Virus record (IMG/VR): IMGVR_UViG_3300045988_129445
DNA length: 64,000 nucleotides
Strand: one strand, 5' to 3'
DNA from: a virus
Made by a program: the position numbers and the translations under genes. The notes below the pieces were generated by a model, which made no database searches, was not told where the DNA came from, and was given only the letters and a program-made list of their open reading frames with translations. Numbering within the stretch: the first letter of the stretch is position 1; every line of letters begins with the position of its first letter. Shown piece by piece: positions 8,167 through 42,880 of the stretch.

Positions 8167-8200
8167 TACAAATTTTTACATAAGAAAGGTGGAATTAATT

Positions 8201-9553
8201 ATGAATCTAAACGAAATGGAAATTCCTTGCGATCCAATTTTGGACAAAACAAAGAGAGATGAGTTGGTGCAGAACACAGAACTTTTAAAACAGGTTACAA
8301 TCAAGCCGATCCCGTGGCTTCCTGGACGAGATTATATTACTACGGAACAGGTAGCACGATTCTTTGATGGAGATGTTGAGGAAGTCAAACGATTGTGTAC
8401 GAAGTATCGTAAAGAATTTTTGGAAGATGGAATGGAAGTTAAGACAGTGCAGGAGATCATTGACGGTCAGGACGCAGCAACGGAAAAACAGAAGGGAAGA
8501 ATCATGGTAACGTATCCGAACGGATTGAATATCTCATTCGGTTACAAGGGTACTAAGGTATTTACTCTTAAATGCTTGATCAGATTGTCTTTGCTGATGG
8601 AAACTTCAAAGCTTGCTGAGAGCGTAAGATATTATGTTTTCATTAATGATTATATCACGATAGAAGAGCAGAGAGAACAAGAACAGATAGAGGCAGGCGT
8701 GCAGCTTGTTGATACAACGGAAATTTTAGGCAGACGAATTGACTTATATAGAAGTATTGAAAATCCGTTATTCTTAGCGAGAGATGTTGCAGAATGGATT
8801 GATTACAGCAAGAGAGATAATGGAAAATATAAGACAGACATGATGTTACAATCTGTTGATTCAGATGAAAAATTTAAGACTAAAATTTTGACTGCCAACA
8901 ATCTTGGCACTCAGAATTTAGGTCAATTAGATACTGATGGAAAAACTAAAGTTCCGTTTTGGTTCCTCACAGAAGATGGACTCTATGAAGTGTGTATGCA
9001 GTCACGCAAGCCGATTGCAAAGCAGATGAAGAAACAGATTAAAGAATATCTTAGGAACATTCGTAAGACAGGCGGTGCAGTTGACTTTGGGAAAGAGTCA
9101 CAATTCATTGAACACTACTTCCCGTCATTCTCTGAGGATGTCAAGCTTGCCATGGTAACCGATCTGCGAACACAAAACAAAGAACTCAAAGAAGAGAATC
9201 AGAAGTTACAGAATGATAATAAGCTATTAGCAGCGGAAATTTTAACATGGGATGATCGCAATAAGATGAACGCTGGGATTAGGAAGTTGGCTGCGGTTAC
9301 AGGGACACAATTCTCTGTTATGTGGAATGAGCTGTATAAGAACTTACAGTATAAATATCAGATTGATGTTAAGAAACGTGGAAAGAAACCATTTCTACAG
9401 TGGATTCAAGAACATGAATGGGATAAGGTACTGAAAGTCTTTTGTGCAATGTGTGAAGCTAGAAACCTATCTCCAACAGATATGTTCCAACAGACAGCAC
9501 CAGTGGAAAATTTATATGATAATGAAGATGAGGATGATGAAGTATGGAATTAG
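8201..9553 (+). CDS. ORF6N/KilA-N-like DNA-binding domain protein with C-terminal coiled coil (450 aa); putative antirepressor
   Basis: N-terminal YITTEQVARFFDGDVEEVKRL resembles the ORF6N/KilA-N family; coiled coil KELKEENQKLQNDNKLL; start moved to ATG 8201. Confidence 0.4.
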   Translation: MNLNEMEIPCDPILDKTKRDELVQNTELLKQVTIKPIPWLPGRDYITTEQVARFFDGDVEEVKRLCTKYRKEFLEDGMEVKTVQEIIDGQDAATEKQKGRIMVTYPNGLNISFGYKGTKVFTLKCLIRLSLLMETSKLAESVRYYVFINDYITIEEQREQEQIEAGVQLVDTTEILGRRIDLYRSIENPLFLARDVAEWIDYSKRDNGKYKTDMMLQSVDSDEKFKTKILTANNLGTQNLGQLDTDGKTKVPFWFLTEDGLYEVCMQSRKPIAKQMKKQIKEYLRNIRKTGGAVDFGKESQFIEHYFPSFSEDVKLAMVTDLRTQNKELKEENQKLQNDNKLLAAEILTWDDRNKMNAGIRKLAAVTGTQFSVMWNELYKNLQYKYQIDVKKRGKKPFLQWIQEHEWDKVLKVFCAMCEARNLSPTDMFQQTAPVENLYDNEDEDDEVWN

Positions 9554-10111: not shown

Positions 10112-11206
10112 ATGAACCTACAGTTAGTTAAAACGGAAAAATTTAACGATATAGCGTGTGATTTTTATAGTGCTGAGGATGATATTTGGATGACAAGAAA
10201 GCAGATTGGAGAGGCACTGGAGTACGATAATCCGAAGGATGCAATTTATAGGATACACGAAAGACATAAAGATAGGTTGGATAAACATTCAGTGGTCGAC
10301 AAATTGTCGACTACTGACGACAAAAAATATGACACTATACTTTATAATGAACGTGGCGTGATGGAAATTTGTAGATGGAGTAAACAGCCAAAGGCAAACA
10401 CCTTTATGGACTGGGTATGGGATATTGTACAGGCTTATCGTCATGGAAAATTAAGAACAGGAACTCCTGTAACAACAGTAGAGCAGTTTCTTACAGAGCA
10501 GACAGAGCTTATGAAGCAGATGGAAAGAAACAATGAACGCCTGTATAAGATTACTATAGAAGGATTTAATCAGTTGGCAGATATCGTTAAAGAAATGAAA
10601 GCTGAACGTAAGGAATTTTATAAGCAGATCGCTAAACCTACGAAAGATATTCCAGTGATGGATAAAGAAGCTGTAATCGCAGAATATAAGATGAATGAAT
10701 GGAAATCTAACGTCTATGGAATTATCGCAGATATTTTGAAAGAATCAGATGAACTAGGAACTACCACTAGAGATATTTTAAGAGAAGTTTATAATTATTT
10801 GACTAACACATATGGTATTGTGTGGGAACAGGATCGGAAAGAATATAAAGAGAAATATAACATCAGAGAAAGAGGCAATGTACCAACGATTGATCTTTGT
10901 TATGACAAATATCCTGATCTGCTAGTCAATTCACTGGAAAAACTTCTGCGACAGTTCCGTAAAGAGAACGCACAGCCTGATTGGGAAGAAATGAAAATCA
11001 AGATTACTAATTATGCTAATCATATTGGAAATAAATCTAAAGGCGGAACGTCTGTTTATCGGAAAATCTACACTAAGATGACAGAGAATGGTGTTAACTG
11101 GGATGAGTATGCTCATGGCATTCCTAAATCTCAGCTTATTAAAACTAATGCAACTTTATACAACAGATTTTATGAAGCTGCGGTGGAAATTATTTCAGAA
11201 GAATAG
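10112..11206 (+). CDS. Bro-N/AntA-like antirepressor family protein (364 aa)
   Basis: N-terminal KFNDIACDFYSAEDDIWMTRKQIGEALEYDNPKDAIYRI resembles Bro-N; strong AGGAAGGTAAAGAATG translation-initiation context. Confidence 0.5.
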   Translation: MNLQLVKTEKFNDIACDFYSAEDDIWMTRKQIGEALEYDNPKDAIYRIHERHKDRLDKHSVVDKLSTTDDKKYDTILYNERGVMEICRWSKQPKANTFMDWVWDIVQAYRHGKLRTGTPVTTVEQFLTEQTELMKQMERNNERLYKITIEGFNQLADIVKEMKAERKEFYKQIAKPTKDIPVMDKEAVIAEYKMNEWKSNVYGIIADILKESDELGTTTRDILREVYNYLTNTYGIVWEQDRKEYKEKYNIRERGNVPTIDLCYDKYPDLLVNSLEKLLRQFRKENAQPDWEEMKIKITNYANHIGNKSKGGTSVYRKIYTKMTENGVNWDEYAHGIPKSQLIKTNATLYNRFYEAAVEIISEE

Positions 11207-17440: not shown

Positions 17441-18391
17441 ATGGCTGCAACACAGTTTGAAGTTATTGAAACAGCAAACAATAATAACGCAGAAGAACCT
17501 GAAGCAAAGATCAAAAGACGTAAGGACGGAAATCCTAAATGGACTCGATCTAATAAACAAAAAGGCGTATCATCTTTAGTGTATCCAATTAAGAATAAAG
17601 AAAAATTTGCAGCCTTTAATGCATATTTTAGAGATCAGATTGATAAATCCTATACAGAGTACAAACGATATGTAGCTGCCAGAAATAATCTTTTGGTTGC
17701 AGTTGGGAACAATACCGCATATCGTATCTCTGATATTGTTAGACTTAAATGGAGCGACTTATTGGGAGACAAGACTCGTAAACAGGAAAAGAAAACAAAG
17801 AAATTCAGAACGGTATACTTTAACGATTTGGTAACTGAAGCAGTGGATATTTTCTTTGAAGCTGTTGCAGGAACTAAATATGATGTCAAGATTGATGGCG
17901 AAGTGTCAATGGATGATTATGTTTTTGGAACATGTAAGTCTGGATCAGGACACATGACTGAAGCAAATGCTTTGGATTTTGTTAAAAAAGGTGCTAAAGC
18001 AGTTGGAATTGAGGACAATATTGGTACACATACACTACGAAAGAACTTTGTGTATTGGACACTTGTTGATCATAAAGATGATCAGAACGTATTGTATACA
18101 CTTATGAGATTGTTGAATCATAGTAGCCCTGCAATGACGTTTTTATATGCTACAATTACAGAAGAGGAAACACATGTATTGTTCGATGATATTGCTCAGA
18201 CATACAAGGATATTATCAGCGGAGCATTTAATGGACTGAGGGAAAATGTTATTAACGTGAGCTATGATAGAGTAATGGAGATTATCAAGTGTGCTTATGA
18301 TGCAGGGAAAGATGATGCAGATAAAGATGATGGAGTGCATGAGGATAATATGCAAGCATTAAAAGAATTACTGGAAGGAGTTATTGTATGA
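17441..18391 (+). CDS. tyrosine-type site-specific recombinase/integrase (316 aa), catalytic residues present
   Basis: Box I NTAYRISDIVRLKWSDL, box II GTHTLRKNF, C-terminal LNHSSPAMTFLYA with the catalytic Tyr. Confidence 0.8.
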   Translation: MAATQFEVIETANNNNAEEPEAKIKRRKDGNPKWTRSNKQKGVSSLVYPIKNKEKFAAFNAYFRDQIDKSYTEYKRYVAARNNLLVAVGNNTAYRISDIVRLKWSDLLGDKTRKQEKKTKKFRTVYFNDLVTEAVDIFFEAVAGTKYDVKIDGEVSMDDYVFGTCKSGSGHMTEANALDFVKKGAKAVGIEDNIGTHTLRKNFVYWTLVDHKDDQNVLYTLMRLLNHSSPAMTFLYATITEEETHVLFDDIAQTYKDIISGAFNGLRENVINVSYDRVMEIIKCAYDAGKDDADKDDGVHEDNMQALKELLEGVIV

Positions 18392-19134
18392 TATTTGTAA
18401 CAGGAGACACACATGGGGATTGGATGACTCGATTAAACAGTCATTCTTTCCCTGAAGGCGTAGGGCTGACTAATGATGATTACGTGATCATTTGCGGAGA
18501 TTTTGGATTGTGGCATGACACAAAAGAAGAACGACATAATCTGGAATGGTTGGACAACAAACCATTTACTACTTTGTTTGTATGTGGGAACCATGAAAAT
18601 TATGATCGGCTGTACGAATATCCTGTAGAAGAATGGAATGGAGGAAAGATTCATAAGATTCGTGATTCTGTTTTTCATCTCATGCGAGGACAGGTATTTG
18701 ATATCCAGGGAAAGAGATTCTTCACATTTGGTGGAGCTAGTTCTCACGATGTTCAGGATGGGATTTTAGAGCCAGACGATCCAAGAATTAGTAAGTGGTA
18801 CAGAGATTATGACAAAATGTTTAGGATCAATCATACGTCATGGTGGAAAGAGGAGTTGCCTTCTGATAAAGAGATGGCAGAGGGTGTGATGAATTTGGAG
18901 AAAAATGACTTTCAAGTAGATTACGTTATTACACATAGCCCATACACATCTGTTTTAAGACAAATGGATGGCGGAGCAGGGTTGTACCAATCTGATAAGT
19001 TAACGGATTATTTACAGCAAATAAAGGACAAAGTGATTTATCAAAAATGGTTCTTTGGGCATATGCACGTTAATAAAAATTTTCTGTGGGATAATGCGAT
19101 TGCAATTTACGAACAGATAATTAGAATTTCATAA
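18388..19134 (+). CDS. calcineurin-like metallophosphoesterase (Ser/Thr protein-phosphatase family), 248 aa
   Basis: GDTHG, GDFGLW and GNHE motifs; start overlaps the recombinase stop (ATGA), so the two are co-operonic. Confidence 0.75.
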   Translation: MIFVTGDTHGDWMTRLNSHSFPEGVGLTNDDYVIICGDFGLWHDTKEERHNLEWLDNKPFTTLFVCGNHENYDRLYEYPVEEWNGGKIHKIRDSVFHLMRGQVFDIQGKRFFTFGGASSHDVQDGILEPDDPRISKWYRDYDKMFRINHTSWWKEELPSDKEMAEGVMNLEKNDFQVDYVITHSPYTSVLRQMDGGAGLYQSDKLTDYLQQIKDKVIYQKWFFGHMHVNKNFLWDNAIAIYEQIIRIS

Positions 19135-20078: not shown

Positions 20079-21107
20079 ATGGAGAATATTATGAATAATA
20101 AAGAATTGATACAAAATTATATAGATTCTCACGTATCAGAATCACGTCGCCCAACATGGAATTGGTTGTTAGATTCTGATATTGCGGACGACAATGAATC
20201 TGGGTTAACGTATGCACCAGGTACAATCCAAGAGGCTATATTATCAGATACTAGAGGTAAAAAAACCAAAAGTATGAATTCTATTAAAAAAAGATATGAC
20301 CAGCTCGTTAAACTATATACTTATGCATATGAACAAAATTACATTAAATATAATCCATTTGTTAATGATAAATTTATAAACTTGCAATTAGCAGTTGATA
20401 TATATTTCTCAAATAGAGTGAGTGTTAATTATGTTACACCAGATAAAATAAATGCGTTTATTTCTAATTTAATGTCGTGTAATGCATCAACTGATACCAA
20501 ATTGAATACTAGATTTCACATTGTGAGTTTATATAATGGGATAAATGGAAAGGAGCTAAGAAATCTAAAATTCTCAGATATTAATCAAAATGATTTAACA
20601 ATTTTTGGGAAACCAGTCTCCAAAGATTTTATTGAGACATTGAATGAATATAAATTGAAAATGGGAGATACGAATATATATCATGATTTTGTATTAATAC
20701 CACGAAAAAAATGTAATAATATAGAAGAATATCAAGCAGAGCAAAAGAGGATATATAATAATGTGCAGTCTCAATTAGAATTAACTGGTAACACTTTATC
20801 TTATGAGAAATTGACAACCATTGATGTTATTAATTCTGGTTTTATACAATATTTGAAATCTAAAATGGATATCAAAGCAATTGCAGATTTATATTATGTT
20901 AAATCAAAAGAAGGAATTGCACGATCTGTAATCGCACGTCAATTTAGTGATATTGCAATTGATTTTTATTATAATTATTATATATCATATCGAGTAAAAA
21001 AGAAGCAATTTAGTGATCGTCAAACTGTAATTGGTAAAACTATCGGTTATTTATATAACGATGAAGACTATAAGCAGTATCGTGTAAATCAAATTATGAC
21101 AGAATAA
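20079..21107 (+). CDS. integrase-like protein with SAM-like N-domain but degenerate catalytic box (342 aa); probably non-catalytic
   Basis: SLYNGINGKELRNLKFSDI aligns with recombinase box I (aLytGlRisEllaLkwsDi), but the catalytic Arg is replaced by Asn; HxxR and Tyr boxes not recognisable; lower-GC gene. Confidence 0.4.
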   Translation: MENIMNNKELIQNYIDSHVSESRRPTWNWLLDSDIADDNESGLTYAPGTIQEAILSDTRGKKTKSMNSIKKRYDQLVKLYTYAYEQNYIKYNPFVNDKFINLQLAVDIYFSNRVSVNYVTPDKINAFISNLMSCNASTDTKLNTRFHIVSLYNGINGKELRNLKFSDINQNDLTIFGKPVSKDFIETLNEYKLKMGDTNIYHDFVLIPRKKCNNIEEYQAEQKRIYNNVQSQLELTGNTLSYEKLTTIDVINSGFIQYLKSKMDIKAIADLYYVKSKEGIARSVIARQFSDIAIDFYYNYYISYRVKKKQFSDRQTVIGKTIGYLYNDEDYKQYRVNQIMTE

Positions 21108-24197: not shown

Positions 24198-26267
24198 ATG
24201 TGTACACCAATGAATGAAAACTGGAGCAATTTTTTAAACAAATTGTCAGAGCGTTTAAATAAAATGCTCGATTATGTAGAGAAAAACAATTCTACATTGT
24301 ATGAAACCGATATTGATAAAGATGAACTTTGGGAAGTATATCTGAGTAGTTTTCCCGAAGGAACTAACAAGATGTATCGCAAGCGAAGAGAATACGATTG
24401 TGGTCATTGCCGAAACTTTATTAAAACAATCGGTGGAGCTGTGGCAATTGTTGACGGCAAGATTCATACAATCTGGGAGATCGACACAGATGATGTAGTA
24501 TTTCAGCCAGTAGTTGATGCTTTAAGAACATATGTCGAATCAAAGCCGATCAAAGATATTTGGAGACATTTTACAAATACAGTTGGAGTAAAAAGTACAA
24601 ATGAGTATACAGAAGATAAGCAGATTATCAAATGGACTCATATGTATACACCGATTCCAGAGAGATTACTAGAAAGAAAATCCGATATTCCTACAGCAAA
24701 AGCAAAAGTTAGAGATCGAAAGAATGTGTTTAAAAGATCACTCGATGAGATTACAGAAGAAGCTGTTGATACCGTATTAGAACTGATCGCTTCAAATACT
24801 CTTTACAGAGGACAGGAATGGGAAAGAGTCTTAAAAGACTTTAGAAAATATCAGCGAGAATATAATGCTTTGTCTGATGAAGAAAAAGATACATACACAT
24901 GGGCAAAAGCAATGACTATCGGAGATGTAATTGGTCGTATTAGAAACCATAGTATTGGTACATTGCTTGTAAATATCAGTGAGGATATGGACTTAGATAA
25001 TGCGGTTAAGGCTTATGAAAATGTTGTAGCTCCTGCGAATTACAAACGACCAAAGGCAATTTTTACAAAGAAAATGCTTGAGGATGCAAAGAAAACTGTG
25101 ACTGATTTAGGATATATGGATTCATTACAGCGTAGATTTGCGGAACTTGATGATATTACAGTCAACAATATCCTGTTTTGTAATCGTGATGCAGCCCCAC
25201 GTATTCAGGGCGGTTTAGATATTTTCGATGAGATGAGTAAGGAAGTTGCTGTAAATCCTAAGAAGTTCTCTAAAGTCGAAGAAATCAGTGCAGAGAAATT
25301 CGTATCAGATGTACTTCCAACGGCAAAAGAATTAGAAGTTCTGTTTGAAAATCGTCACAAGAAGAATATGGTTTCACTGATCGCACCTGTAAATAAAGAT
25401 GCTAAGAACATGATGAAGTGGAGTAATCCTTTCAGCTGGGCATATTCAGGAAATATGACAGACAGTGAAATGAAAGAAAGAGTTAAGAACGCAGGTGGTG
25501 CAGTTGATGGAGTTTTAAGATTCTCAATTCAGTGGAATGCAAATACAGATTGGAATCAGGACGATTTTGATGCACATTGCAGAACTCCACGTCATCATAT
25601 CTATTATGCTTCAATGCATGATTATGCAACTGGTGGAAGCCTTGATGTTGATGTAACTCATCCACATAGAGGAGAGCCTGCCGTAGAAAATATTACATGG
25701 GCAGATAAATCCAAAATGGTTGACGGAGAATATGAATTTTTCGTAAGAAATTTTGCTCATAGAAATGGAGTTTCTGGATTTACAGCAGAGATTGAATTTG
25801 ATGGACAGATTTATGAATTTGAATATGATAAGCCTTTACGTCAGAACGAAGATGTTCCAGTAGCTACAGTTACATTAAAAGATGGTGTGTTTACAATCAA
25901 AGAGAAACTTCCATCAACAACATCTTCAAGAGAAATCTGGGGCGTCAATACAAATCAGTTTGTGCCAGTAACAGTAATGTGTTATTCACCTAACTATTGG
26001 GATGAACAGACAGGTATTGGACACAAACATTATCTGTTTATGTTAAACGGATGCGTAAATGAAGATACACCAAATGGATTCTTTAATGAATTTTTGAAAC
26101 AGGAATTAGTACAGCACAAGAGAGTATTCGAGGCTTTAGGAAGCAAGATGCATGTCGCAGATGATCCAAACCAGCTATCAGGAATTGGTTTCAGTTCTAC
26201 AAAACGAGATGATGTAATCGTTAAAGTCAAGGGTGCAACAGAAAGAGTTCTTAAAATTAAATTTTAA
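24198..26267 (+). CDS. large hypothetical protein (689 aa)
   Basis: AAAGGAGATAAATTATG context; no motif recognised by eye; sits immediately upstream of the NAD module. Confidence 0.55.
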   Translation: MCTPMNENWSNFLNKLSERLNKMLDYVEKNNSTLYETDIDKDELWEVYLSSFPEGTNKMYRKRREYDCGHCRNFIKTIGGAVAIVDGKIHTIWEIDTDDVVFQPVVDALRTYVESKPIKDIWRHFTNTVGVKSTNEYTEDKQIIKWTHMYTPIPERLLERKSDIPTAKAKVRDRKNVFKRSLDEITEEAVDTVLELIASNTLYRGQEWERVLKDFRKYQREYNALSDEEKDTYTWAKAMTIGDVIGRIRNHSIGTLLVNISEDMDLDNAVKAYENVVAPANYKRPKAIFTKKMLEDAKKTVTDLGYMDSLQRRFAELDDITVNNILFCNRDAAPRIQGGLDIFDEMSKEVAVNPKKFSKVEEISAEKFVSDVLPTAKELEVLFENRHKKNMVSLIAPVNKDAKNMMKWSNPFSWAYSGNMTDSEMKERVKNAGGAVDGVLRFSIQWNANTDWNQDDFDAHCRTPRHHIYYASMHDYATGGSLDVDVTHPHRGEPAVENITWADKSKMVDGEYEFFVRNFAHRNGVSGFTAEIEFDGQIYEFEYDKPLRQNEDVPVATVTLKDGVFTIKEKLPSTTSSREIWGVNTNQFVPVTVMCYSPNYWDEQTGIGHKHYLFMLNGCVNEDTPNGFFNEFLKQELVQHKRVFEALGSKMHVADDPNQLSGIGFSSTKRDDVIVKVKGATERVLKIKF

Positions 26268-26687: not shown

Positions 26688-26720
26688 ACCCACCCGTCAA
26701 ATTTGACGGGTGTGTGTTTA
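26688..26720 (+). terminator. strong hairpin (CACCCGTCA-aatt-TGACGGGTG) with weak T-tract; terminator or attenuator
   Basis: 9-bp GC-rich stem read from the sequence; followed by TGTGTTTA. Confidence 0.35.
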
Positions 26721-27238: not shown

Positions 27239-27796
27239 ATGGACAATAACAAAATTTTAGTTGTTATTGATATGCAGAATGACTTTATTGATGGGAGTTT
27301 AGGAACGAAAGAGGCACAAGAAATCGTACCTAAAGTAGTTGAGAAAATTCGTAATTTTGATGAAGATGGAGATTTGTATGTAACGAAAGACACACATGAT
27401 GAAGATTATTTAGATACACAAGAGGGAATAAAACTACCAGTAAAACATTGTATTTTTCTTGAAGATGGATGGTATATCAATAAAGATATTTTGAAAGTTA
27501 TTGAAGAAAGAGGATTTGACAGTGTAAGAAGGTATTTTAATAAACCTACATTTGGTTCATTTAGATTAGCAGATCATTTTAGGAGAGAATACAAATATGC
27601 TTCAAATCTTGAAATTACATTAGTTGGATTATGTACCGATATTTGTGTTATTTCAAATGCGATGTTAATTAAATCGGTATTACCAGAGGCAAGAATTATT
27701 GTCGATGCATCTTGCTGTGCAGGTGTAACACCAGAGAGTCACAAGAACGCACTCGAAGCAATGAAGATGTGCCAGATTGAAGTAATCAATGAGTAA
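27239..27796 (+). CDS. isochorismatase-family cysteine hydrolase, nicotinamidase (PncA)-like (185 aa)
   Basis: N-terminal VVIDMQNDFIDGSLG (Asp of the D-K-C triad) and VGLCTDICVISNA (nucleophile Cys). Confidence 0.6.
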   Translation: MDNNKILVVIDMQNDFIDGSLGTKEAQEIVPKVVEKIRNFDEDGDLYVTKDTHDEDYLDTQEGIKLPVKHCIFLEDGWYINKDILKVIEERGFDSVRRYFNKPTFGSFRLADHFRREYKYASNLEITLVGLCTDICVISNAMLIKSVLPEARIIVDASCCAGVTPESHKNALEAMKMCQIEVINE

Positions 27797-27810
27797 AGGA
27801 GTGATGAAGG

Positions 27811-28647
27811 ATGATTAGCATTGGTGATGTACCAGTTGTTCCAGTTGTTTTCCCAGATGGAACACAGAAAATTGATTTACAGTTAGAGGCGATGTATCGA
27901 GAGATTACAGAAAATAAGACAGTATATATTACGTGGCTATACGAATCAGACAAAGAGCTGTTTTCGTTATATTGTATTTCTAAAAATATTAGAGAGCATT
28001 TTCCACAATTACAACAAGATTTAATGATGCCATACATACCAAATGCAAGATTTGATAGGGTAAAATATTCAAACGAATGCTTTACTTTAAAATATTTTGC
28101 AGAAATCATTAATAGTCTGGGATTTGTAAGAGTAATTGTAACTGATCCGCATTCCGATGTATCTACTGCATTGATTAATCATGTAGAAGTAATCCGTGGA
28201 GCATCATATATCACACAAACTTGTAGCAAAATCCTTAAAGCAGAGCCATCAAGAAATCTCGTAATTTATTTCCCAGACAGTGGATCACTAAAAAGATATT
28301 CTGAATTTGTATCAGATGATTATCCGATTGTCTATGGAATTAAAAATCGTGATTGGAAGACAGGAAAAATTCTTGGTATTGAGATTCATGGAGATACAGA
28401 GAAATTAGATGAGAATACAGCAATTTTAATGATTGATGATATTTGTAGTAAGGGTGGCACATTCTACTACGGATCAAAAGAATTAAACAAATACGGTTGT
28501 AAAGATATGTATTTGTACGTTACTCACTGTGAAAACACAATTCTTGATGGCGAATTACTAAAGGAAGATAGTTTGTTTAAAAAAGTATTTACAACACGTA
28601 GTATCTTTACGAAAGAACATGAGAAAGTTGAGGTGTTAGATTTATGA
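27811..28647 (+). CDS. ribose-phosphate pyrophosphokinase (Prs) family enzyme; candidate ADPR-pyrophosphate synthetase (Adps-type), 278 aa
   Basis: MPYIPNARFDR (Prs: IPYYGYARQDR), RVIVTDPHSD (Prs: RVIALDLHAPQ), AILMIDDICSKGGT (Prs PRPP loop: AILIDDIIDTAGT), YVTHC. Confidence 0.7.
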   Translation: MISIGDVPVVPVVFPDGTQKIDLQLEAMYREITENKTVYITWLYESDKELFSLYCISKNIREHFPQLQQDLMMPYIPNARFDRVKYSNECFTLKYFAEIINSLGFVRVIVTDPHSDVSTALINHVEVIRGASYITQTCSKILKAEPSRNLVIYFPDSGSLKRYSEFVSDDYPIVYGIKNRDWKTGKILGIEIHGDTEKLDENTAILMIDDICSKGGTFYYGSKELNKYGCKDMYLYVTHCENTILDGELLKEDSLFKKVFTTRSIFTKEHEKVEVLDL

Positions 28648-30113
28648 AACAGACAAATCCAATGTTATTAATTGATTTTTATAAAGCAGTTCATGCTGAA
28701 ATGTTACCAAAAGGTATTACAAAATCTGTTTCTTATTTTACTCCACGTATGAGCAGAGTAAAACGATGGAATGAAGTAGCCATGTTTGGATTACAAGGAT
28801 TCATTAAAGAGTATTTGGTCGATTATTTTAATGAGTATTTTTTCTTTGAATATAGAAACAAAGCAATTGGTACTTATAAGACAGTAATGGATGCAGCTCT
28901 TGGAGAAGGTACATATGGATTACAGAAAATCGAAGATTTATATGATCTTGGCTATCTTCCAATTGAGATTAAGGCTCTTCCTGAAGGAACTTTAGTACCA
29001 ATGCATGTGCCGATGTTTAGTATTGAGAATACACATAAAGATTTTGCATGGTTACCACAGGCATTAGAAAGCTTAATTTCCGCAGAAATGTGGCATCCGA
29101 TGATCGCCGCAACTGTTGGACATACATACAGACAGATTGTTAATAAGTTCTATGATATGACTTGTGATGACGATATTCCAAAATCTAAAGCATTAGGGGC
29201 TTTCGATTTTCGTGGCGAAGAATGTTTACAGTCTGCGGTTAAAGCAGGGGCAGGATGGTGTTTATCATTCTTAAATACTGCAACAGTTCCAACAATTCCG
29301 TATTTAGAGAGAAATTATAACTGTGATTGCACAAAAGAACCAGTTGCTTTTGGTAGTCCGTCTACTGAGCATTCGGTTATGTGTAGTAATTATGCGATTG
29401 ACGGAGATGAAGAGACTCTAATCAAAAGATTACTAACAGAGATTTACCCAAATACAAGTTTTTCTGCGGTATTGGACTCATATGATTATTGGAATGTCGT
29501 AGAAAATATTCTTCCAAAGCTTAAAAATGAGATTATGAATCACAACGGATGTCTTCTTATCAGAGGGGACTCAGGAGATTGTGTAGACGTAGTAACCAGA
29601 ACGGTATTTAAGTTATGGGAAGAGTTTGGGGGAACAACAAACAGTAAAGGTTATAAAGTTTTAAATCCTCATGTAAAAGCAATTTATGGAGATTCAATTA
29701 CAGTGCAGAGATGTGAGCAGATTTATGACATCTTAGAGAAAAATGGATTCGCAGCCAGCAATGTTGCACTTGGTGTTGGATCATTCTCATTTCAGTGTAT
29801 CGAAGAGGATGGAGTTTTGAAACCATTTACAAGAGATACATTTAGTAGTTGTATCAAAGCAACATATTGTGAGATTGATGGCAGACCATATCCAATTTTT
29901 AAGAATCCAAAAGATGGCGGATTTAAGAAATCTCAGAGAGGTTTATGTCATGTCTATAAAGGATCAGACAGCAAACTGACATTTAAAGATGGATATACTT
30001 CAGAAAATCTTCCAATGAATAATTTGCTCGAAACGGTATTCAGAGATGGCAAATTAGTAAAAGAACAGTCATTGCAGGAGATTAGAAGAGTGTTAAACGA
30101 AGGAGAATTTTAA
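28644..30113 (+). CDS. type-II phosphoribosyltransferase of the NAMPT/NadV family; candidate nicotinamide ADPR transferase (Namat-type) or NadV, 489 aa
   Basis: N-terminal NPMLLIDFYKAVHAEMLP matches NAMPT/PncB (DSYK/DAYK); size matches; start overlaps the Prs-like stop (ATGA). Confidence 0.65.
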   Translation: MKQTNPMLLIDFYKAVHAEMLPKGITKSVSYFTPRMSRVKRWNEVAMFGLQGFIKEYLVDYFNEYFFFEYRNKAIGTYKTVMDAALGEGTYGLQKIEDLYDLGYLPIEIKALPEGTLVPMHVPMFSIENTHKDFAWLPQALESLISAEMWHPMIAATVGHTYRQIVNKFYDMTCDDDIPKSKALGAFDFRGEECLQSAVKAGAGWCLSFLNTATVPTIPYLERNYNCDCTKEPVAFGSPSTEHSVMCSNYAIDGDEETLIKRLLTEIYPNTSFSAVLDSYDYWNVVENILPKLKNEIMNHNGCLLIRGDSGDCVDVVTRTVFKLWEEFGGTTNSKGYKVLNPHVKAIYGDSITVQRCEQIYDILEKNGFAASNVALGVGSFSFQCIEEDGVLKPFTRDTFSSCIKATYCEIDGRPYPIFKNPKDGGFKKSQRGLCHVYKGSDSKLTFKDGYTSENLPMNNLLETVFRDGKLVKEQSLQEIRRVLNEGEF

Positions 30114-30130
30114 GAGAGGAGATATAAAAC

Positions 30131-30901
30131 ATGAGTTTTAATGCAGCAGAAACCAAAGACAGATTAGTGCAGTGGATCAGAGATTGGTTTGAAATTAATG
30201 GTAAAGGATGTAATGCCGTTGTAGGAATTTCAGGCGGTAAAGATTCGTCAGTGGTTGCAGCCTTATGCGTAGAAGCACTTGGCAAGAATCGAGTAATTGG
30301 AGTTATGATGCCACAGGGTGTGCAGTCAGATATTGAGTATGCTCAGATGCTATGTGATCATCTAGGAATTGAACATTACACAGTTAATATTTTTAATGCT
30401 TGCAGAGATATTAAACATGAAATCAGAGATGAATTAGGTGGTAAATGGAGTAAACAAAGTGCCACAAATTTACCTGCTCGTATCCGTATGGCTACATTAT
30501 ATGCTTTTGCACAGAGTATGAATGGAAGGGTAAGTTGTAATTGCAATTTATCCGAAGATTGGGTTGGATATGCGACTTATGGCGGAGATGGATTTGGATC
30601 ATTTGCTCCACTTGCCGATCTGACTGTGACAGAAGTTAAAGCAATTGGTAAAGTTCTGGGACTTCCAACAGAGTTAATCGAAAAAATTCCTACTGATGGG
30701 TTATGTGGTAAGACAGATGAAGATAATCTTGGATTTACATACGAAGTGTTGGATGAATATATCAGAACAGGTGAATGCAAGGATAAAGCAGTGAGACAGA
30801 TCATTGATGAAATGCATGAGAAGAATGTATTTAAACTTGCTCCAATGCCTAAATTTATATCTGGCATGTGGATCGAGGCAGGAATGGAGTTGGATGATTA
30901 A
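30131..30901 (+). CDS. nadE: NH3-dependent NAD+ synthetase (256 aa)
   Basis: PP-loop VVGISGGKDSSVVAAL and overall NadE-like length and composition. Confidence 0.8.
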   Translation: MSFNAAETKDRLVQWIRDWFEINGKGCNAVVGISGGKDSSVVAALCVEALGKNRVIGVMMPQGVQSDIEYAQMLCDHLGIEHYTVNIFNACRDIKHEIRDELGGKWSKQSATNLPARIRMATLYAFAQSMNGRVSCNCNLSEDWVGYATYGGDGFGSFAPLADLTVTEVKAIGKVLGLPTELIEKIPTDGLCGKTDEDNLGFTYEVLDEYIRTGECKDKAVRQIIDEMHEKNVFKLAPMPKFISGMWIEAGMELDD

Positions 30902-31301: not shown

Positions 31302-32729
31302 ATGATTGAAGTAATTGGAACAGTGGTACCAGTGGTTATTGCGGTAGGTGGCGTAGGAGCTATTATCGGTAGCGGTTATGTCAAAGCAAGTCCAGATAAA
31401 GCTTATATTATTTCTGGACTTAGAAAGACACCTAAGACATTAATTGGTAAGGCGGGGTTAAAAATCCCATTCTTTGAAAAAGCAGATCATCTTAATCTTG
31501 AGTTAATTCCAATTGATGTTAAGACATCAAGTTCTGTGCCTACAGCAGATTATATCAATATCAATGTAGATGCAGCGGTCAATGTAAAGGTTAGCAGTAA
31601 TCCAGAAAGATTAAAACTTGCAGCAGAAAACTTCTTAAATAAGCCAGTAGGCGATATTGGACAGGTCGCAAGAGAAGTCCTTGAAGGTAATATGCGAGAG
31701 ATTGTTGGAAAGATGAGTCTCGAAGAAATGGTTTCTGATCGTCAGAAATTTGCACAGCTTGTTACAGAAAATGCGAAGCCAGATCTTGCTGCAATGGGAT
31801 TAGATATTATCAGTTTTAATGTTCAGAATTTTATGGATGATAATGATGTTATTGAAAATCTTGGTGTAGATAATGTTGTTAAAATCAAGAAGAAGGCTGC
31901 GATTTCCAGAGCTGAAAGCGAAAGAGATATTGAAAAAGCAAAAGCAATGGCTGAAAAAGAAGCAAACGATGCAAAGGTAGAGTCAGCAACAGCGATTGCA
32001 GAAAAGAATAACAATCTGGAGATTAAAAAATCTGAGCTTGAAAAGATTTCAAAAGCAAAGAAAGCCGAGGCAGATGCAGCATACAAGATCCAGGAAGAAA
32101 AATCACGTAAAGAAATTGAAGTTGTAACTGCGGATGCTAATATTATGCGTCAGGAAAAGGAAATTGAACTGAAACGCAAAGACGTTGAGGTAACAGAGCA
32201 GACATTAGATGCACAGATCAAGAAGCAGGCAGAGGCTGAAAGATATGCTTCACAGCAGAAAGCAGATGCAGACTTATACAAGAAACAGAAAGAATCTGAA
32301 GCTAACAAATATGCTATGGAGCAGGAAGCTGAAGGTATTCGTGCAAAGGGTGTAGCAGAAGCCGAAGCAATCAAAGCCAAAGGTATTGCTGAAGCAGAAG
32401 CAATCGAAAAGAAAGCAGAAGCTATGAAACAGATGGGCAAAGCATCTATTGTAGAAATGATGTGTCAGATGTTCCCAGAAGCAGTTAAAAATGCAGCCGC
32501 ACCATTAGGAAATGTAGGAAGTATCACTATGTATGGAGAAGGAAACACAACAAAATTAACAAAAGATATTATGAATGTTGTGAATCAGGTATCAGATGGT
32601 GTTAAAGGATCTACAGGTGTTGATCTTGCAAAGATGTTAAAAGATTTTGTTTCTGAAGATAACGAAGTAGAATCTACAGATAATGTTGGTCAGCCAGAAG
32701 TATATTCAGACGATTATCGTGAGTTCTAA
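31302..32729 (+). CDS. flotillin-like SPFH/band-7 protein with N-terminal membrane anchor and Glu/Ala-rich repeat region (475 aa)
   Basis: N-terminal hydrophobic MIEVIGTVVPVVIAVGGVGAIIG; SPFH core (PDKAYIISGL...IPIDVKT...VDAAVNVKV); long KAxAxAEAEAI-type flotillin repeats. Confidence 0.75.
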   Translation: MIEVIGTVVPVVIAVGGVGAIIGSGYVKASPDKAYIISGLRKTPKTLIGKAGLKIPFFEKADHLNLELIPIDVKTSSSVPTADYININVDAAVNVKVSSNPERLKLAAENFLNKPVGDIGQVAREVLEGNMREIVGKMSLEEMVSDRQKFAQLVTENAKPDLAAMGLDIISFNVQNFMDDNDVIENLGVDNVVKIKKKAAISRAESERDIEKAKAMAEKEANDAKVESATAIAEKNNNLEIKKSELEKISKAKKAEADAAYKIQEEKSRKEIEVVTADANIMRQEKEIELKRKDVEVTEQTLDAQIKKQAEAERYASQQKADADLYKKQKESEANKYAMEQEAEGIRAKGVAEAEAIKAKGIAEAEAIEKKAEAMKQMGKASIVEMMCQMFPEAVKNAAAPLGNVGSITMYGEGNTTKLTKDIMNVVNQVSDGVKGSTGVDLAKMLKDFVSEDNEVESTDNVGQPEVYSDDYREF

Positions 32730-32743
32730 TAGGAGAAATTATT

Positions 32744-33478
32744 ATGACAATTATTATTATTTGTGTAATTATAGCGATTATCGCATATTTGCAATTTACT
32801 AAAAATGGAAAACAGATTAAAAATGTGGCATCTGGAACAGTCACAGAGAAAATCAAAGAAAATGCAATGACTCCAGAGGGAGCAAGAGCCAGATATAATA
32901 CTGCAATTAAAGACAAGCAGGACTTCTACCAGAAAACAATGGGTACATACACAATGGTAGCTGGTCGATTGGCAACAATGGAAGATGACCTCAAAGAAAC
33001 AAAAGAAGAAATTTCTAAAACCGAGGTAATGATCAACCAGTATCTTGATAATAATGATGATAAAAAAGCAATGTATTATGCTCAAAAATTAGCCACGTTA
33101 AAGGCACAGAAATCAGTGTACGAAAAGAAGATCCCAGAGTTACAAGCAACAAAAGATAAGCAAGAAGAAATTAAAAACCAAGCATATGATCAGCTTATTA
33201 AACTAAAAGGCGAAAAAGACACTGTAGTTCTCCAGATGGAGGCAGATCAGCAGATTGCAGAATTGCAGAAAAATTTAGATCAATACAATAGTTCAAATGC
33301 TGCTCAGGAAGGTTTGGAAGAGGTTCGAGAAGGAGCAAAGAAACTTAGCGAACAAGCCAAAGGCGTTGCTATTGCGTATGAATCTAGTGCAGAAACATTG
33401 GATTATCATATGGAGCAAGAAGAGCGACAGCAAGAAGCTAAAGCCATATTAGATCAGATGAAAAATGCTCGCAAATAA
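32744..33478 (+). CDS. membrane-anchored coiled-coil protein (244 aa); possibly PspA/IM30-like
   Basis: N-terminal transmembrane helix MTIIIICVIIAIIAYL, then extended heptad-rich coiled coil; the specific family is not established. Confidence 0.5.
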   Translation: MTIIIICVIIAIIAYLQFTKNGKQIKNVASGTVTEKIKENAMTPEGARARYNTAIKDKQDFYQKTMGTYTMVAGRLATMEDDLKETKEEISKTEVMINQYLDNNDDKKAMYYAQKLATLKAQKSVYEKKIPELQATKDKQEEIKNQAYDQLIKLKGEKDTVVLQMEADQQIAELQKNLDQYNSSNAAQEGLEEVREGAKKLSEQAKGVAIAYESSAETLDYHMEQEERQQEAKAILDQMKNARK

Positions 33479-39766: not shown

Positions 39767-40720
39767 ATGAAATGTTTTTATCACGTTGATCAAGACGGGA
39801 TTGTGTCTGGGTTTTACGTTAGAAAAGCTTGCGAACAGCGAGGTTTAGCATTTGAACCAGAGGACTTCCGAAAAATTAATTACGGCATGAAATTCCCGTT
39901 TCATGACATTGAGCAGGATGAATTTGTGTTTATTGTAGACTACAGTATTGAGCCAGAAGAGATGTGGCAGTTGCTCAGTATTACAAAGAATGTATTTTGG
40001 ATCGACCATCATCAGTCTACGATTGAAGCGTATAAAGATTTCAAGTGTGATGTAAAAGGAATCAGAATTACTGGAGCGGGTATTTCAGGAGCGAATTTGA
40101 CATGGTTATATTTTAAATATATGTGTGATGAAAATTGGGAGCAAATTGAGAGGACGGATGAGAAAAATGTAAAAAGATTACTCAATATATATAAATATAA
40201 AGCAGATTATCCAAAACTGGCAGAATATACAGCCATGTGGGATACATTTTATTTTGGTGAAACGTCAAAACAATTCGTAAAAGCATTTCACTATGCATTT
40301 GAATCGTATGATTTTGATGCGTTAAGTCCATTGCTAAACACGTTAAATAAAGATCAAGGAATTTATGAAGCAGCAAAAATTATTGGTGATATGATAGCAG
40401 ATGGCTTATCAATTATTGAGTATTTAGCAGCAAATGCAGAACAATATCTTAGAGCATATGGTTTTGAAACCATATTTGAGGGACATAAAGTCTATGCAAT
40501 CAACAGAGCGTTAATCAATTCTGATTTCTTCGAATCTATTGATGCTTCTAAATACGATATGTTTATCGGTTTTTCATTCAATGGAAGTATGTGGGAATAT
40601 CAGCTACGATCCGCAGAACAAGATAAAGTAAATGTGTATGAGCTTGCTGTGAAATATGGTGGTGGCGGTCATCCAAATGCAGCTGGGTTCAGATGTGATA
40701 AATATGTATTAGGAGTGTGA
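39767..40720 (+). CDS. DHH-DHHA1 phosphoesterase (NrnA-like nanoRNase / pAp phosphatase family), 317 aa
   Basis: DHH motif I HVDQDGIVSG, motif III WIDHHQS, DHHA1 motif KYGGGGHPNAAGF. Confidence 0.7.
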   Translation: MKCFYHVDQDGIVSGFYVRKACEQRGLAFEPEDFRKINYGMKFPFHDIEQDEFVFIVDYSIEPEEMWQLLSITKNVFWIDHHQSTIEAYKDFKCDVKGIRITGAGISGANLTWLYFKYMCDENWEQIERTDEKNVKRLLNIYKYKADYPKLAEYTAMWDTFYFGETSKQFVKAFHYAFESYDFDALSPLLNTLNKDQGIYEAAKIIGDMIADGLSIIEYLAANAEQYLRAYGFETIFEGHKVYAINRALINSDFFESIDASKYDMFIGFSFNGSMWEYQLRSAEQDKVNVYELAVKYGGGGHPNAAGFRCDKYVLGV

Positions 40721-41527: not shown

Positions 41528-42062
41528 TGAACAGCGAAAGCTGATTGAAGATAATTATTCTTTGATTTGGCATTTGCATGAGAAGTATTTTACAAAATTT
41601 AAAGATTTTGATACATATATGGATCTTGGTCGTATGGCAATTTGCAAAGCAGCATTAAAATGGGATGAGTCTAAAGGTAATTTTGGGACGTATTTTAGAT
41701 GGGTATTACAGTCAGAAATTAATAAATATTATATAAAATGGCATAGCCCAACAGAGAAAATGAACAGAAATGCGGAATCATTGGATGCACCTGTTGACGA
41801 AAGAGTTGACGCAGAAGAATTAACAATTGGTAGTTTGCTTGTGAGTAACGATGACATAGAGAGTCAAGCATTAACAACAGTATATTATCAAGGAGAATTT
41901 AACAAATTGTCAGACAAGCAGAAGAAAATTATATATATGTTACTTGATGATATTGAACATAAATACATAGCCAAAGAATTTGGAAAGAGTATTCAATGGG
42001 TAAGTTGGCAACTTGGTAATATTAAAAAAATAATGCATAGGGCAAAGGCGGTGAGATCATGA
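41511..42062 (+). CDS. sigma-70-family sigma factor, small TcdR/UviA-like type (183 aa, GTG start)
   Basis: Region 2: DLGRMAICKAALKWDESKGNFGTYFRWVLQSEINKY; region 4 HTH: YIAKEFGKSIQWVSWQLGNIKKIM; AGGAGG ribosome-binding site. Confidence 0.75.
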   Translation: MKKLNDEQRKLIEDNYSLIWHLHEKYFTKFKDFDTYMDLGRMAICKAALKWDESKGNFGTYFRWVLQSEINKYYIKWHSPTEKMNRNAESLDAPVDERVDAEELTIGSLLVSNDDIESQALTTVYYQGEFNKLSDKQKKIIYMLLDDIEHKYIAKEFGKSIQWVSWQLGNIKKIMHRAKAVRS

Positions 42063-42880
42063 CAATTGAAGAAGTGAAAGATTACATAAACTCGTCTACA
42101 GAGTATGATTTTTTGCGAGATTATCCTCATAAAATCGCTTTTCTCACACTAGGTGGAAGTTATGCTTACGGAACAAATACAGAGGATTCTGACATTGATT
42201 TACGTGGTGTTTTCCTTAGTGATAAAAGAGAGATTTTGTTGAATAATAATCAGAACAATCTTGAGAAGACCGATGATCATAAAGACATTGATACCGTGTT
42301 ACATTCGCATATTAAGATGGTTAATATGCTTGCTAAGGGCAATCCTACATTTTTAGAGTTGCTATACTTTGCACCAGACCGCTATTTGTATGTATCCGAT
42401 ATTGGTATGGAGTTGATCAAAAATAGAGATATGTTCTTATCTAAGAGAGTTTGTCATGCATATAAAGGATATATTTGTGATTGCCTAGAACAAGCATACG
42501 TGAGATGTTCTAAATCAGACGACATTCAAAAGAAAACAAAATTTGCCAATAAATCAATGATGCATGCTGTTCGTTTGTTGCTCCAAGTGATTCAATTACT
42601 ACAATGTGGAACTATGTGTGGAACAATTGAAGAAATAGGAAAAGACCTTATAGATATTAAGATGGGGTACAATACTTTGTGTGAAAAGAGACATCTTCCA
42701 GATGGCACTGAATGTACGGATTATCGTCCAAACGAATCTTATAATGTGTTTACTAACAGACTATTGTCTGAATTTGAGTATGGGTACAAACATACAACCT
42801 TGCCAGACGAACCAGACTGGGATCGTATCAATAACTTCTTGATGACAACAAATGAACGAATTGTGAGAGGAATGGTGTAA
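42059..42880 (+). CDS. Pol-beta-superfamily nucleotidyltransferase with C-terminal helical domain (273 aa)
   Basis: LTLGGSYAYGTNTEDSDIDLRGVF is the GS-x9-13-DxD nucleotidyltransferase signature; start overlaps the sigma-gene stop. Confidence 0.65.
   Translation: MTIEEVKDYINSSTEYDFLRDYPHKIAFLTLGGSYAYGTNTEDSDIDLRGVFLSDKREILLNNNQNNLEKTDDHKDIDTVLHSHIKMVNMLAKGNPTFLELLYFAPDRYLYVSDIGMELIKNRDMFLSKRVCHAYKGYICDCLEQAYVRCSKSDDIQKKTKFANKSMMHAVRLLLQVIQLLQCGTMCGTIEEIGKDLIDIKMGYNTLCEKRHLPDGTECTDYRPNESYNVFTNRLLSEFEYGYKHTTLPDEPDWDRINNFLMTTNERIVRGMV

Follow-up and report, generated by a model that had tools for sequence, protein, structure and literature searches.

The 64,000-nucleotide stretch of viral DNA in IMG/VR record IMGVR_UViG_3300045988_129445, hereafter the window, encodes a four-gene module of nicotinamide adenine dinucleotide (NAD+) metabolism at 27239-30901. 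It consists of a predicted PncA-type nicotinamidase, an Adps-clade homologue of ribose-phosphate pyrophosphokinase (Prs), a Namat-like transferase and an NH3-dependent NAD+ synthetase, NadE. Adps and Namat are the two enzymes of NARP1, the pathway by which phages rebuild NAD+ from ADP-ribose (ADPR) and nicotinamide via ADPR-pyrophosphate (ADPR-PP). With moderate confidence, we propose that the module is a deamidated version of NARP1: at the centre of a PncA-Adps-Namat-NadE loop, a previously undescribed nicotinate:ADPR-PP transferase would make nicotinic acid adenine dinucleotide (NaAD).

The proposed loop would start when a host defence NADase splits NAD+ into ADPR and nicotinamide. The phage nicotinamidase would convert nicotinamide to nicotinic acid and NH3, while the Adps homologue would convert ADPR, its predicted substrate, to ADPR-PP. 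The Namat-subfamily enzyme would then join nicotinic acid and ADPR-PP directly into NaAD, which NadE would amidate to NAD+. The loop would close from both products of the defence NADase without any host enzyme. We infer from this scheme an anti-defence role for the four genes. An earlier note on this DNA had pointed to a paradox, a nicotinamidase that destroys the substrate of the neighbouring transferase; the paradox disappears if the transferase uses nicotinic acid. The note had also considered a hybrid amidated/deamidated route, of which the deamidated part gains support from two pocket changes, Ala213 and Ser240, that co-occur almost perfectly with PncA and NadE.

The Namat-like transferase, its pocket and its partners

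The transferase gene (28644..30113, + strand, 489 aa) encodes a protein with PF04095 (NAPRTase) and NAMPT_N domains that matches phrog_448 at 527 bits. Its closest structures are PDB entries 9w5x/9w5w (388 bits) and the phage entry 9ke8 (320 bits), compared with ~175 bits to the human, rat and Xanthomonas (Xcc) Nampts. We take 9w5x/9w5w to be the Namat of phage SPβL1 because their numbering fits every residue named in PMC12774641. Given these scores, sequence comparison places the protein in the Namat clade and not with NadV, PncB or Nampt. Profile models give it differing names. The protein fails the NAPRTase equivalog TIGR01513 (22.8 bits, cutoff 297.4) and passes NF006629, 'nicotinate phosphoribosyltransferase' (438.5 bits, cutoff 405). 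We take NF006629 to be a family of NadV/Nampt type whose name is historical and presumably says nothing about the substrate; for the subfamily described below, the label may by accident lie nearer the truth on the pyridine substrate. The same name is attached to a 97% identical protein in an Anaerostipes record.

For the pocket, 42 de-replicated Namat-like sequences were aligned and the 20 ligand-contact positions of SPβL1 Namat were examined, with residues placed by alignment to the 2.3-Å Namat-NAD+ structure (the 388-bit match). The core contacts D13, Y15, F189, R192, H245, R306, D308, G360, D361, G390 and R399 are identical in the window protein and invariant throughout; the equivalent of H245 is His243, within STEHSVM. 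All contacts to the ribose, the phosphates and the AMP moiety are likewise invariant. The only strict switches among the 20 positions are D215 to A/S and A242 to S, both lining the carboxamide, and they divide the alignment into two groups. Position 215 is Asp or Glu in 25/25 canonical sequences and Ala, Ser or Val across the other subfamily, the window having Ala213 (codon 29280..29282, + strand), which aligns with SPβL1 Asp215 and human NAMPT Asp219. Position 242 is Ala in 25/25 Asp-type and Ser in 17/17 Ala/Ser-type sequences, the window having Ser240 (codon 29361..29363, + strand) at this position of the nicotinamide pocket. The crystal structure of SPβL1 Namat shows a hydrogen bond between Asp215 and nicotinamide, and the D215A substitution cuts NAD+ synthesis 8.1-fold (PMC12774641); Asp219 of human NAMPT is a determinant of substrate specificity (PMC7096376, PMC4919578). 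We infer that loss of the Asp would remove charge repulsion with a carboxylate, which Arg190 (R192 in SPβL1) and Ser240 could then bind.

Are these switches associated with particular neighbours? Three proteins (that of the window, SPβL1 Namat and 9ke8) served as queries for Namat homologues, ±10 kb were fetched around each homologue, and the flanks were searched with iteratively built hidden Markov models (HMMs); IMG/VR counts refer to loci flanked by at least 5 kb on either side. PncA, NadE and Adps occur together within a few kb at 76/78 Ala/Ser-type loci. Asp/Glu-type loci have Adps in 26/26 cases and PncA or NadE in 0/26. After de-replication at 80% identity the split is 16/16 versus 0/23, and a separate scan of GTDB genomes found all four genes at 49/51 Ala-type loci. 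Three collections together hold more than 120 related loci with these four genes, which makes a chance arrangement very improbable. NadE and the hydrolase, as the earlier note rightly said, do not belong to the minimal pair described for NARP1, and neither gene is present at any canonical locus examined. Among 50,697 GenBank phage records, Adps is found in 1,526, any NadE homologue in 51 and a PncA-like gene in 7, counts from which it follows that canonical NARP1 phages are devoid of PncA and NadE genome-wide. All seven records with a PncA-like gene, and the five best NadE records, are from the gut.

An exhaustive search covered 1.84 billion representatives. Among the nearest 150 clusters at 50% identity, 94 have D215/A242 and 47 have A/S215/S242. 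With the two diagnostic columns removed before tree building, the Ala/Ser/Val forms fall into a single pure clade of 44/138 tips. As judged from these sequences, the two pocket switches define a monophyletic Namat subfamily, to which about one in three of the nearest clusters at 50% identity belongs. Sequences that are just 30-50% identical still show the linkage: contigs of divergent members whose adenine clamp is canonical (P0264, P0265, P0275, P0297, P0332 and phage Phass-1) again carry PncA-Adps-Namat-NadE. In Phass-1 (OQ749652), GenBank names only three of these genes; WIC39685.1 (L001:9935-10858), annotated 'hypothetical protein', is a NadE 44% identical to that of the window, so Phass-1 carries the full four-gene module.

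The adenine side of the transferase is more variable. The 'selectivity clamp' segment SCH of Namat is defined by the motif GS-X-Φ-X-Φ-X-Φ-TRD, in which positions 3 and 7 are aromatic (PMC12774641). The aligned segment of the window gene (29772..29837, + strand; GVGSFSFQC-IEEDGVLKP-FTRD) reads GSFSFQC, a 9-aa insertion (29799-29825, + strand) and FTRD; Phe is kept at position 3 and the aromatic at position 7 is lost, leaving the motif incomplete. Ala/Ser-type sequences still have the adenine contacts R40, F/Y392, T398 and D400, and Arg40 of the SCL element, which stacks on adenine, corresponds to window Arg38 in TPRMSRV. An insertion of 8-20 aa displaces Y396 in most, not all, Ala/Ser-type members. 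It is lineage-specific, being absent from Phass-1, P0264, P0265, P0275, P0297 and P0378, which all still have Ala215/Ser242. In several clusters of the Ala/Ser clade (one of them reads GIGSYTYQYNTRD), as in Phass-1, the adenine-clamp motif of Namat is perfect. As a separate observation, many Namat-like representatives (P0243, P0261, P0276, P0281, P0288, P0317 and others) have lengths of 550-1,114 aa and align with the 489-aa query in two to four separate stretches, which suggests inteins, homing-endonuclease insertions or domain fusions inside the gene.

The Prs homologue (27811..28647, + strand, 278 aa) is the predicted ADPR pyrophosphokinase of the module (ADPR + ATP to ADPR-PP). It matches phrog_619, the phage 'ribose-phosphate pyrophosphokinase' family, at 228 bits and falls under every NCBIfam Prs cutoff (TIGR01251: 80.5 bits, cutoff 113). 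An HMM built solely from the Adps of canonical Asp-type NARP1 loci matches it over its full length at 239 bits. By sequence it belongs to the Adps clade and not to housekeeping Prs, and a comparison of Adps from Ala/Ser-type and Asp-type modules found no group-specific positions. K178 and R180 are invariant in all 40 aligned Adps and are candidates for the counterpart of the active-site Lys of SPβL1 Adps, K162. The Adps clade is separate from cellular Prs, and 97% of its members have a Namat homologue close by (Osterman et al., bioRxiv 2024.02.11.579819); here the adjoining Namat-like gene overlaps the Adps gene by 4 bp. The two profile comparisons (388 versus ~175 bits and 239 versus 80 bits) bear out the earlier suggestion that the Prs-like and NAMPT-like genes are the Adps and Namat pair of NARP1.

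The hydrolase (27239..27796, + strand, 185 aa) matches Pfam Isochorismatase PF00857 at 67.5 bits. Its best PDB matches are nicotinamidases, the first being the Pyrococcus horikoshii pyrazinamidase/nicotinamidase 1ILW. The triad D11, K102 and C136 aligns with D10, K94 and C133 of 1ILW, and the Zn site D51, H53 and H70 with D52, H54 and H71; none of the six residues varies among 74 distinct module-linked homologues. C132 was considered as the catalytic Cys and ruled out, as the 1ILW alignment places C136 there. The protein remains below the NCBIfam PncA equivalog NF008623 (26.4 bits, cutoff 174), a model of the E. coli-type bifunctional enzyme on which the short archaeal/Firmicute type scores poorly. 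Its nearest relatives are cysteine hydrolases of gut Clostridia, 60-66% identical.

NadE (30131..30901, + strand, 256 aa) exceeds the cutoff of TIGR00552 (172.9 bits, cutoff 63.65) and matches PF02540 at 175 bits. It is a single-domain protein without a glutaminase domain, its best PDB matches are all NH3-dependent NadE, and its PP-loop SGGKDS (residues 34-39) is invariant in 77 module-linked homologues. A NadE-like gene of cyanophage P-TIM68 was rejected as a relative of the module, being located in a glycosyltransferase context.

Alternative chemistries of the module

Several observations weigh against a nicotinate:ADPR-PP transferase. In the lineage of the window, the 9-aa insertion displaces the second adenine-stacking aromatic (Y396 in SPβL1), and position 190 is Asp, not Ser; because of the SCH insertion, the loss of the Y396 equivalent and this Asp, the use of ADPR-PP could be altered in this lineage. 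NadM-type adenylyltransferases of nicotinamide mononucleotide (NMN) near eight loci hint at a mononucleotide route in some lineages. The linkage itself is strong (Fisher p = 2.7e-11 for the de-replicated loci, without phylogenetic correction), yet the single origin of the Ala/Ser type makes it one maintained evolutionary event and not many independent ones. Two loci are exceptional, L013 being without NadE and L043 without PncA, and the genes in place of the missing ones gave no Pfam identity. Finally, human NAMPT D219S is tabulated as switching substrate affinity and D219A as losing activity (PMC4919578, PMC7096376, both citing Khan 2006). The sole direct precedent for a specificity switch is Asp to Ser, whereas Asp to Ala in the same enzyme is reported as a loss of activity. 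The D219S enzyme is said to gain use of nicotinate or to accept both substrates.

The last point leads to an alternative that we consider unlikely, in which the Namat-like enzyme couples either nicotinamide or nicotinic acid to ADPR-PP, with NAD+ and NaAD as the products, and PncA and NadE merely rescue the fraction deamidated by the phage or host nicotinamidase. The hybrid route of the earlier note was of this kind, the tabulated switch of D219S (PMC4919578, citing Khan 2006) fits it, and SPβL1 D215A retains ~12% activity with nicotinamide (PMC12774641). A nicotinamidase would however be counter-productive if nicotinamide were a good substrate, yet 76/78 and 49/51 loci retain it, its active site is invariant, and both amide-facing pocket residues are changed in every member. 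Also improbable is a Preiss-Handler booster that dispenses with ADPR-PP: phosphoribosyl pyrophosphate (PRPP), made by the Prs-like enzyme or the host, and nicotinate would give nicotinic acid mononucleotide, which host NadD would convert to NaAD for the phage NadE. The broken SCH clamp of the window lineage, the ability of Namat to use PRPP in vitro (bioRxiv 2024.02.11.579819) and the eight loci with NadM-type genes speak for such a mononucleotide route. Against it, the Prs-like protein lies in the Adps clade without group-specific changes, and SPβL1 Adps gave no measurable product in a control assay without ADPR (bioRxiv 2024.02.11.579819). The adenine contacts R40, F/Y392, T398 and D400 persist, the SCH motif is perfect in several members, Phass-1 among them, and modules contain Macro/Adpp-like, NADAR and NrtR-like regulator genes. 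Moreover, neither the window nor more than 95% of loci encode an adenylyltransferase.

Two alternatives remain. An ordinary NARP1 (nicotinamide + ADPR-PP to NAD+) next to two unrelated, host-derived auxiliary metabolic genes would accord with the mosaic nature of phage genomes and with the 60-66% identity of PncA to gut Clostridia proteins, which suggests a host origin. We consider it very unlikely, and the idea of a plain NARP1 with two add-ons finds no support: PncA and NadE are split perfectly between the two types (0/26 Asp-type versus 76/78 Ala/Ser-type loci), the two strict switches fall exactly at the amide-binding residues, and the linkage survives 30-50% identity, changes of gene order, insertions and allelic replacement. 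That the hydrolase acts on another amide, such as a modified nucleotide or a defence signal, seems highly improbable. Its 26 bits against the cutoff of 174 for the E. coli-type PncA equivalog would allow this, and its bacterial homologues are in uninformative contexts (P0029 and P0101 lie among unrelated housekeeping genes, with no pncB/nadD/nadE neighbourhood). However, the D-K-C triad and the D-x-H...H metal site are complete and invariant, the best PDB matches are nicotinamidases, and nicotinamide deamidation would explain the strict co-occurrence with NadE and an altered pyridine pocket. The different hydrolase substrate raised in the earlier note is thus not borne out by the active site, which is that of a full nicotinamidase in all 74 module-linked homologues. 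We continue to favour a nicotinate-using Namat as the centre of the module.

Locus, neighbouring genes and module variation

The earlier note had called four co-directional genes with these annotations; the four open reading frames (ORFs) lie on the + strand at exactly 27239-30901, and profile and PDB matches agree with the calls. They had been described as overlapping, which holds for the Adps and Namat-like genes (4 bp, ATGA), the remaining junctions being short gaps of 14, 17 and 2 bp. Each of the four genes is preceded by a Shine-Dalgarno-like sequence. A terminator-like hairpin at 26691..26712 (+ strand, 9-bp stem with 6 GC pairs, from a consensus scan alone) is the probable upstream limit of the transcription unit. 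Downstream of it follow a 155-aa ORF, also preceded by a Shine-Dalgarno sequence, then PncA, Adps, Namat, NadE, a 110-aa ORF and a flotillin gene. A 689-aa gene and the flotillin gene had been named as the flanks of the operon. The former does not adjoin it, being separated from the hydrolase by a 129-aa ORF, the 155-aa ORF and the hairpin, and the 110-aa ORF sits between NadE and flotillin.

The 155-aa, 110-aa and 129-aa ORFs are confined to close relatives of the window phage. As parts of the system, these three, the 689-aa gene, the flotillin gene and a PspA-like gene were all rejected, since they do not travel with the module. The 689-aa protein (24198-26267) matches phrog_1735 at 880 bits and has no Pfam match; its gene recurs upstream or downstream of the module in the divergent loci L002, L044, L047, L056, L066 and L077-L081 and is absent near most. 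On the 3' side, 31302-33478 holds the flotillin-like gene (Band_7 and Flot domains; FloT model 285 bits, under cutoff) and a weak PspA/IM30-like gene, a membrane-scaffold/stress pair that is unusual for a phage and is kept in close relatives and a few others.

The window covers an early/replication region encoding DnaB, primase, RecJ, DNA polymerase and Ant-like proteins. Its source is a large gut phage that is rich in AT and has its genes all on a single strand. Megablast of the operon against GenBank phages gave no match, which indicates that there is no close cultured relative; many relatives of ~160 kb are found in gut viromes and in metagenome-assembled genome bins of Lachnospiraceae. For a phage of ~160 kb, two tyrosine-recombinase-like genes (17441-18391 and 20079-21107) and two Ant/KilAC-like anti-repressor genes (8189-9553 and 10112-11206) were also recorded. 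Some relatives lie on contigs of 0.9-1.4 Mb assigned to Mogibacterium or Lachnospiraceae, for which integration or mis-binning is a possibility. A DHH phosphoesterase (39767-40720), a nucleotidyltransferase (phrog_388; 42059-42880) and a metallophosphoesterase (18388-19134) are candidates for other roles in nucleotide signalling or anti-defence.

Gene order in the module is usually PncA, Adps, Namat and NadE with variable insertions, and is rearranged in L110 and L002. Mosaic variation is evident among loci whose Namat is 97-99% identical to that of the window (L003-L031, L061, L068 and L072): Adps is 72-97% and NadE 86-100% identical, and the PncA allele is either ~98% or ~63-65% identical, the swapped allele occupying the same position ~0.85 kb upstream of the Namat-like gene. 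PncA has been replaced by allelic exchange, its function retained and its sequence exchanged.

Other lineages have genes inserted in their modules, namely a Macro domain (the Adpp of NARP1-AP), NADAR, Tpt1/KptA, NT5C and a small HAD-like ORF. Macro genes lie inside the Ala/Ser-type modules L002, L067, L077 and L120, and the whole 64-kb window yielded no Macro homologue. Asp-type modules also contain Macro, NADAR and the HAD-like ORF, and these shared ADPR-handling accessories are consistent with both module types being fed by ADPR. The presence of Macro/Adpp-like, NADAR, Tpt1 and NrtR-like genes in Ala/Ser-type modules makes ADPR a fitting input. An ORF of ~136-139 aa with a DFDDT motif, located between Namat and NadE (L001:9510-9932, L032:11482-11895, L060, L063, L105 and L108), occurs in both Ala- and Asp-type modules; it has no Pfam match, its motif is HAD-phosphatase-like, and it may represent a second kind of NARP1-associated phosphatase.

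The NadM-type NMN adenylyltransferase (NMNAT; GRFQTFHIGH, Pfam CTP_transf_like) occurs near eight Ala/Ser-type loci (L043:12246-12833, where it is placed after NadE; L120:16002-16652; L123, L124, L125, L144, L149 and L163) and in no Asp-type locus; the window has no NadM/NMNAT-like ORF. In L120 (5800-16700), a Ser-type module of ~10.6 kb is interleaved with a Tpt1/KptA RNA 2'-phosphotransferase, Macro, NADAR, a vWA-like protein and an NMNAT, forming a dense island of ADPR metabolism. One further module, L219:128-4614 (Logan SRR22388207 contig 892), consists of an NrtR winged-helix regulator, Adps, PncA, Namat and NadE. Its Namat has Ala215/Ser242 and a canonical clamp, and a convergent methyl-accepting chemotaxis gene adjoins the module, which is apparently bacterial and chromosomal. 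NrtR regulators respond to ADPR, and by analogy this locus would point to a bacterial operon for NAD+ repair that is induced by ADPR.

Relation to known NAD+ restoration pathways

The module resembles NARP1 (Osterman et al., bioRxiv 2024.02.11.579819; PMC12774641) in its phage context and in the Namat-clade gene that directly follows Adps, with translational coupling between the two. Conservation extends to the catalytic core, to the contacts with ribose, phosphate and AMP and to most residues of the adenine clamp, and Macro, NADAR and HAD-like accessories are common to both. Unlike NARP1, it has Ala (Ser in sister lineages) in place of Asp215 and Ser in place of Ala242, its Namat belongs to a separate monophyletic subfamily with an SCH insertion in most members, PncA and NadE are near-obligate, and its transferase is predicted to make NaAD in place of NAD+. 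On its ADPR side, the module works like NARP1; the two Namat features that it lacks are Asp215 and, in the window lineage, the SCH motif. NARP1-AP, which consists of NARP1 and the Macro-domain ADPR-1''-phosphatase Adpp (bioRxiv 2026.01.28.702374), is likewise a NARP1 operon extended by an input-adapting enzyme. Its extension is on the ADPR side, whereas here the pyridine side is extended together with a downstream amidation, and the window is without a Macro gene.

With Preiss-Handler salvage (PncA-PncB-NadD-NadE) the module shares the first enzyme, PncA, the last, NadE, and NaAD as the predicted intermediate. It differs in having no PncB-family enzyme and no NadD; Adps and a nicotinate-specific Namat are predicted in their place, with ADPR replacing PRPP and ATP. 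Like NARP2 (Nampt and NMNAT/Nudix) and NARP3 (PnuC and NadR; PMC13464706), it would restore phage NAD+ against NAD+-depleting defence. Those pathways proceed via NMN from PRPP or nicotinamide riboside, and the window encodes no NMNAT, Nudix, PnuC or NadR; NARP3 is unrelated to the module. In the full-text literature, including the texts on NARP1, NARP1-AP, RyDEP and the Namat structure, we did not find a nicotinate-using Namat, NaAD made from ADPR-PP, or PncA or NadE in NARP1 operons.

NAD+ depletion is among the commonest anti-phage strategies of bacteria, and NARP1 is the main known way in which phages reverse it. If our proposal is true, the module would represent a fourth viral route of NAD+ restoration and would add a new reaction to NAD biochemistry, the direct synthesis of NaAD from ADPR. 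An anti-defence pathway would have been re-plumbed in nature through a single pocket residue known for nicotinamide/nicotinate specificity in human NAMPT, and a two-residue swap would be expected to interconvert the two specificities. The variant is near-absent from cultured phages (7/50,697 GenBank records, all from the gut), and its subfamily is common in gut viromes and abundant among ~160-kb phages whose hosts are gut Lachnospiraceae and further Clostridia. Because of this distribution, current tools for calling 'NARP1' would mis-assign its chemistry. The deamidated route is longer and costs more ATP than NARP1, and would nevertheless be preferred by phages of gut Clostridia. Such a preference might reflect the trapping of charged nicotinate in the cell, an ATP-driven NadE step that pulls the equilibrium, or adaptation to hosts with high nicotinamidase activity.

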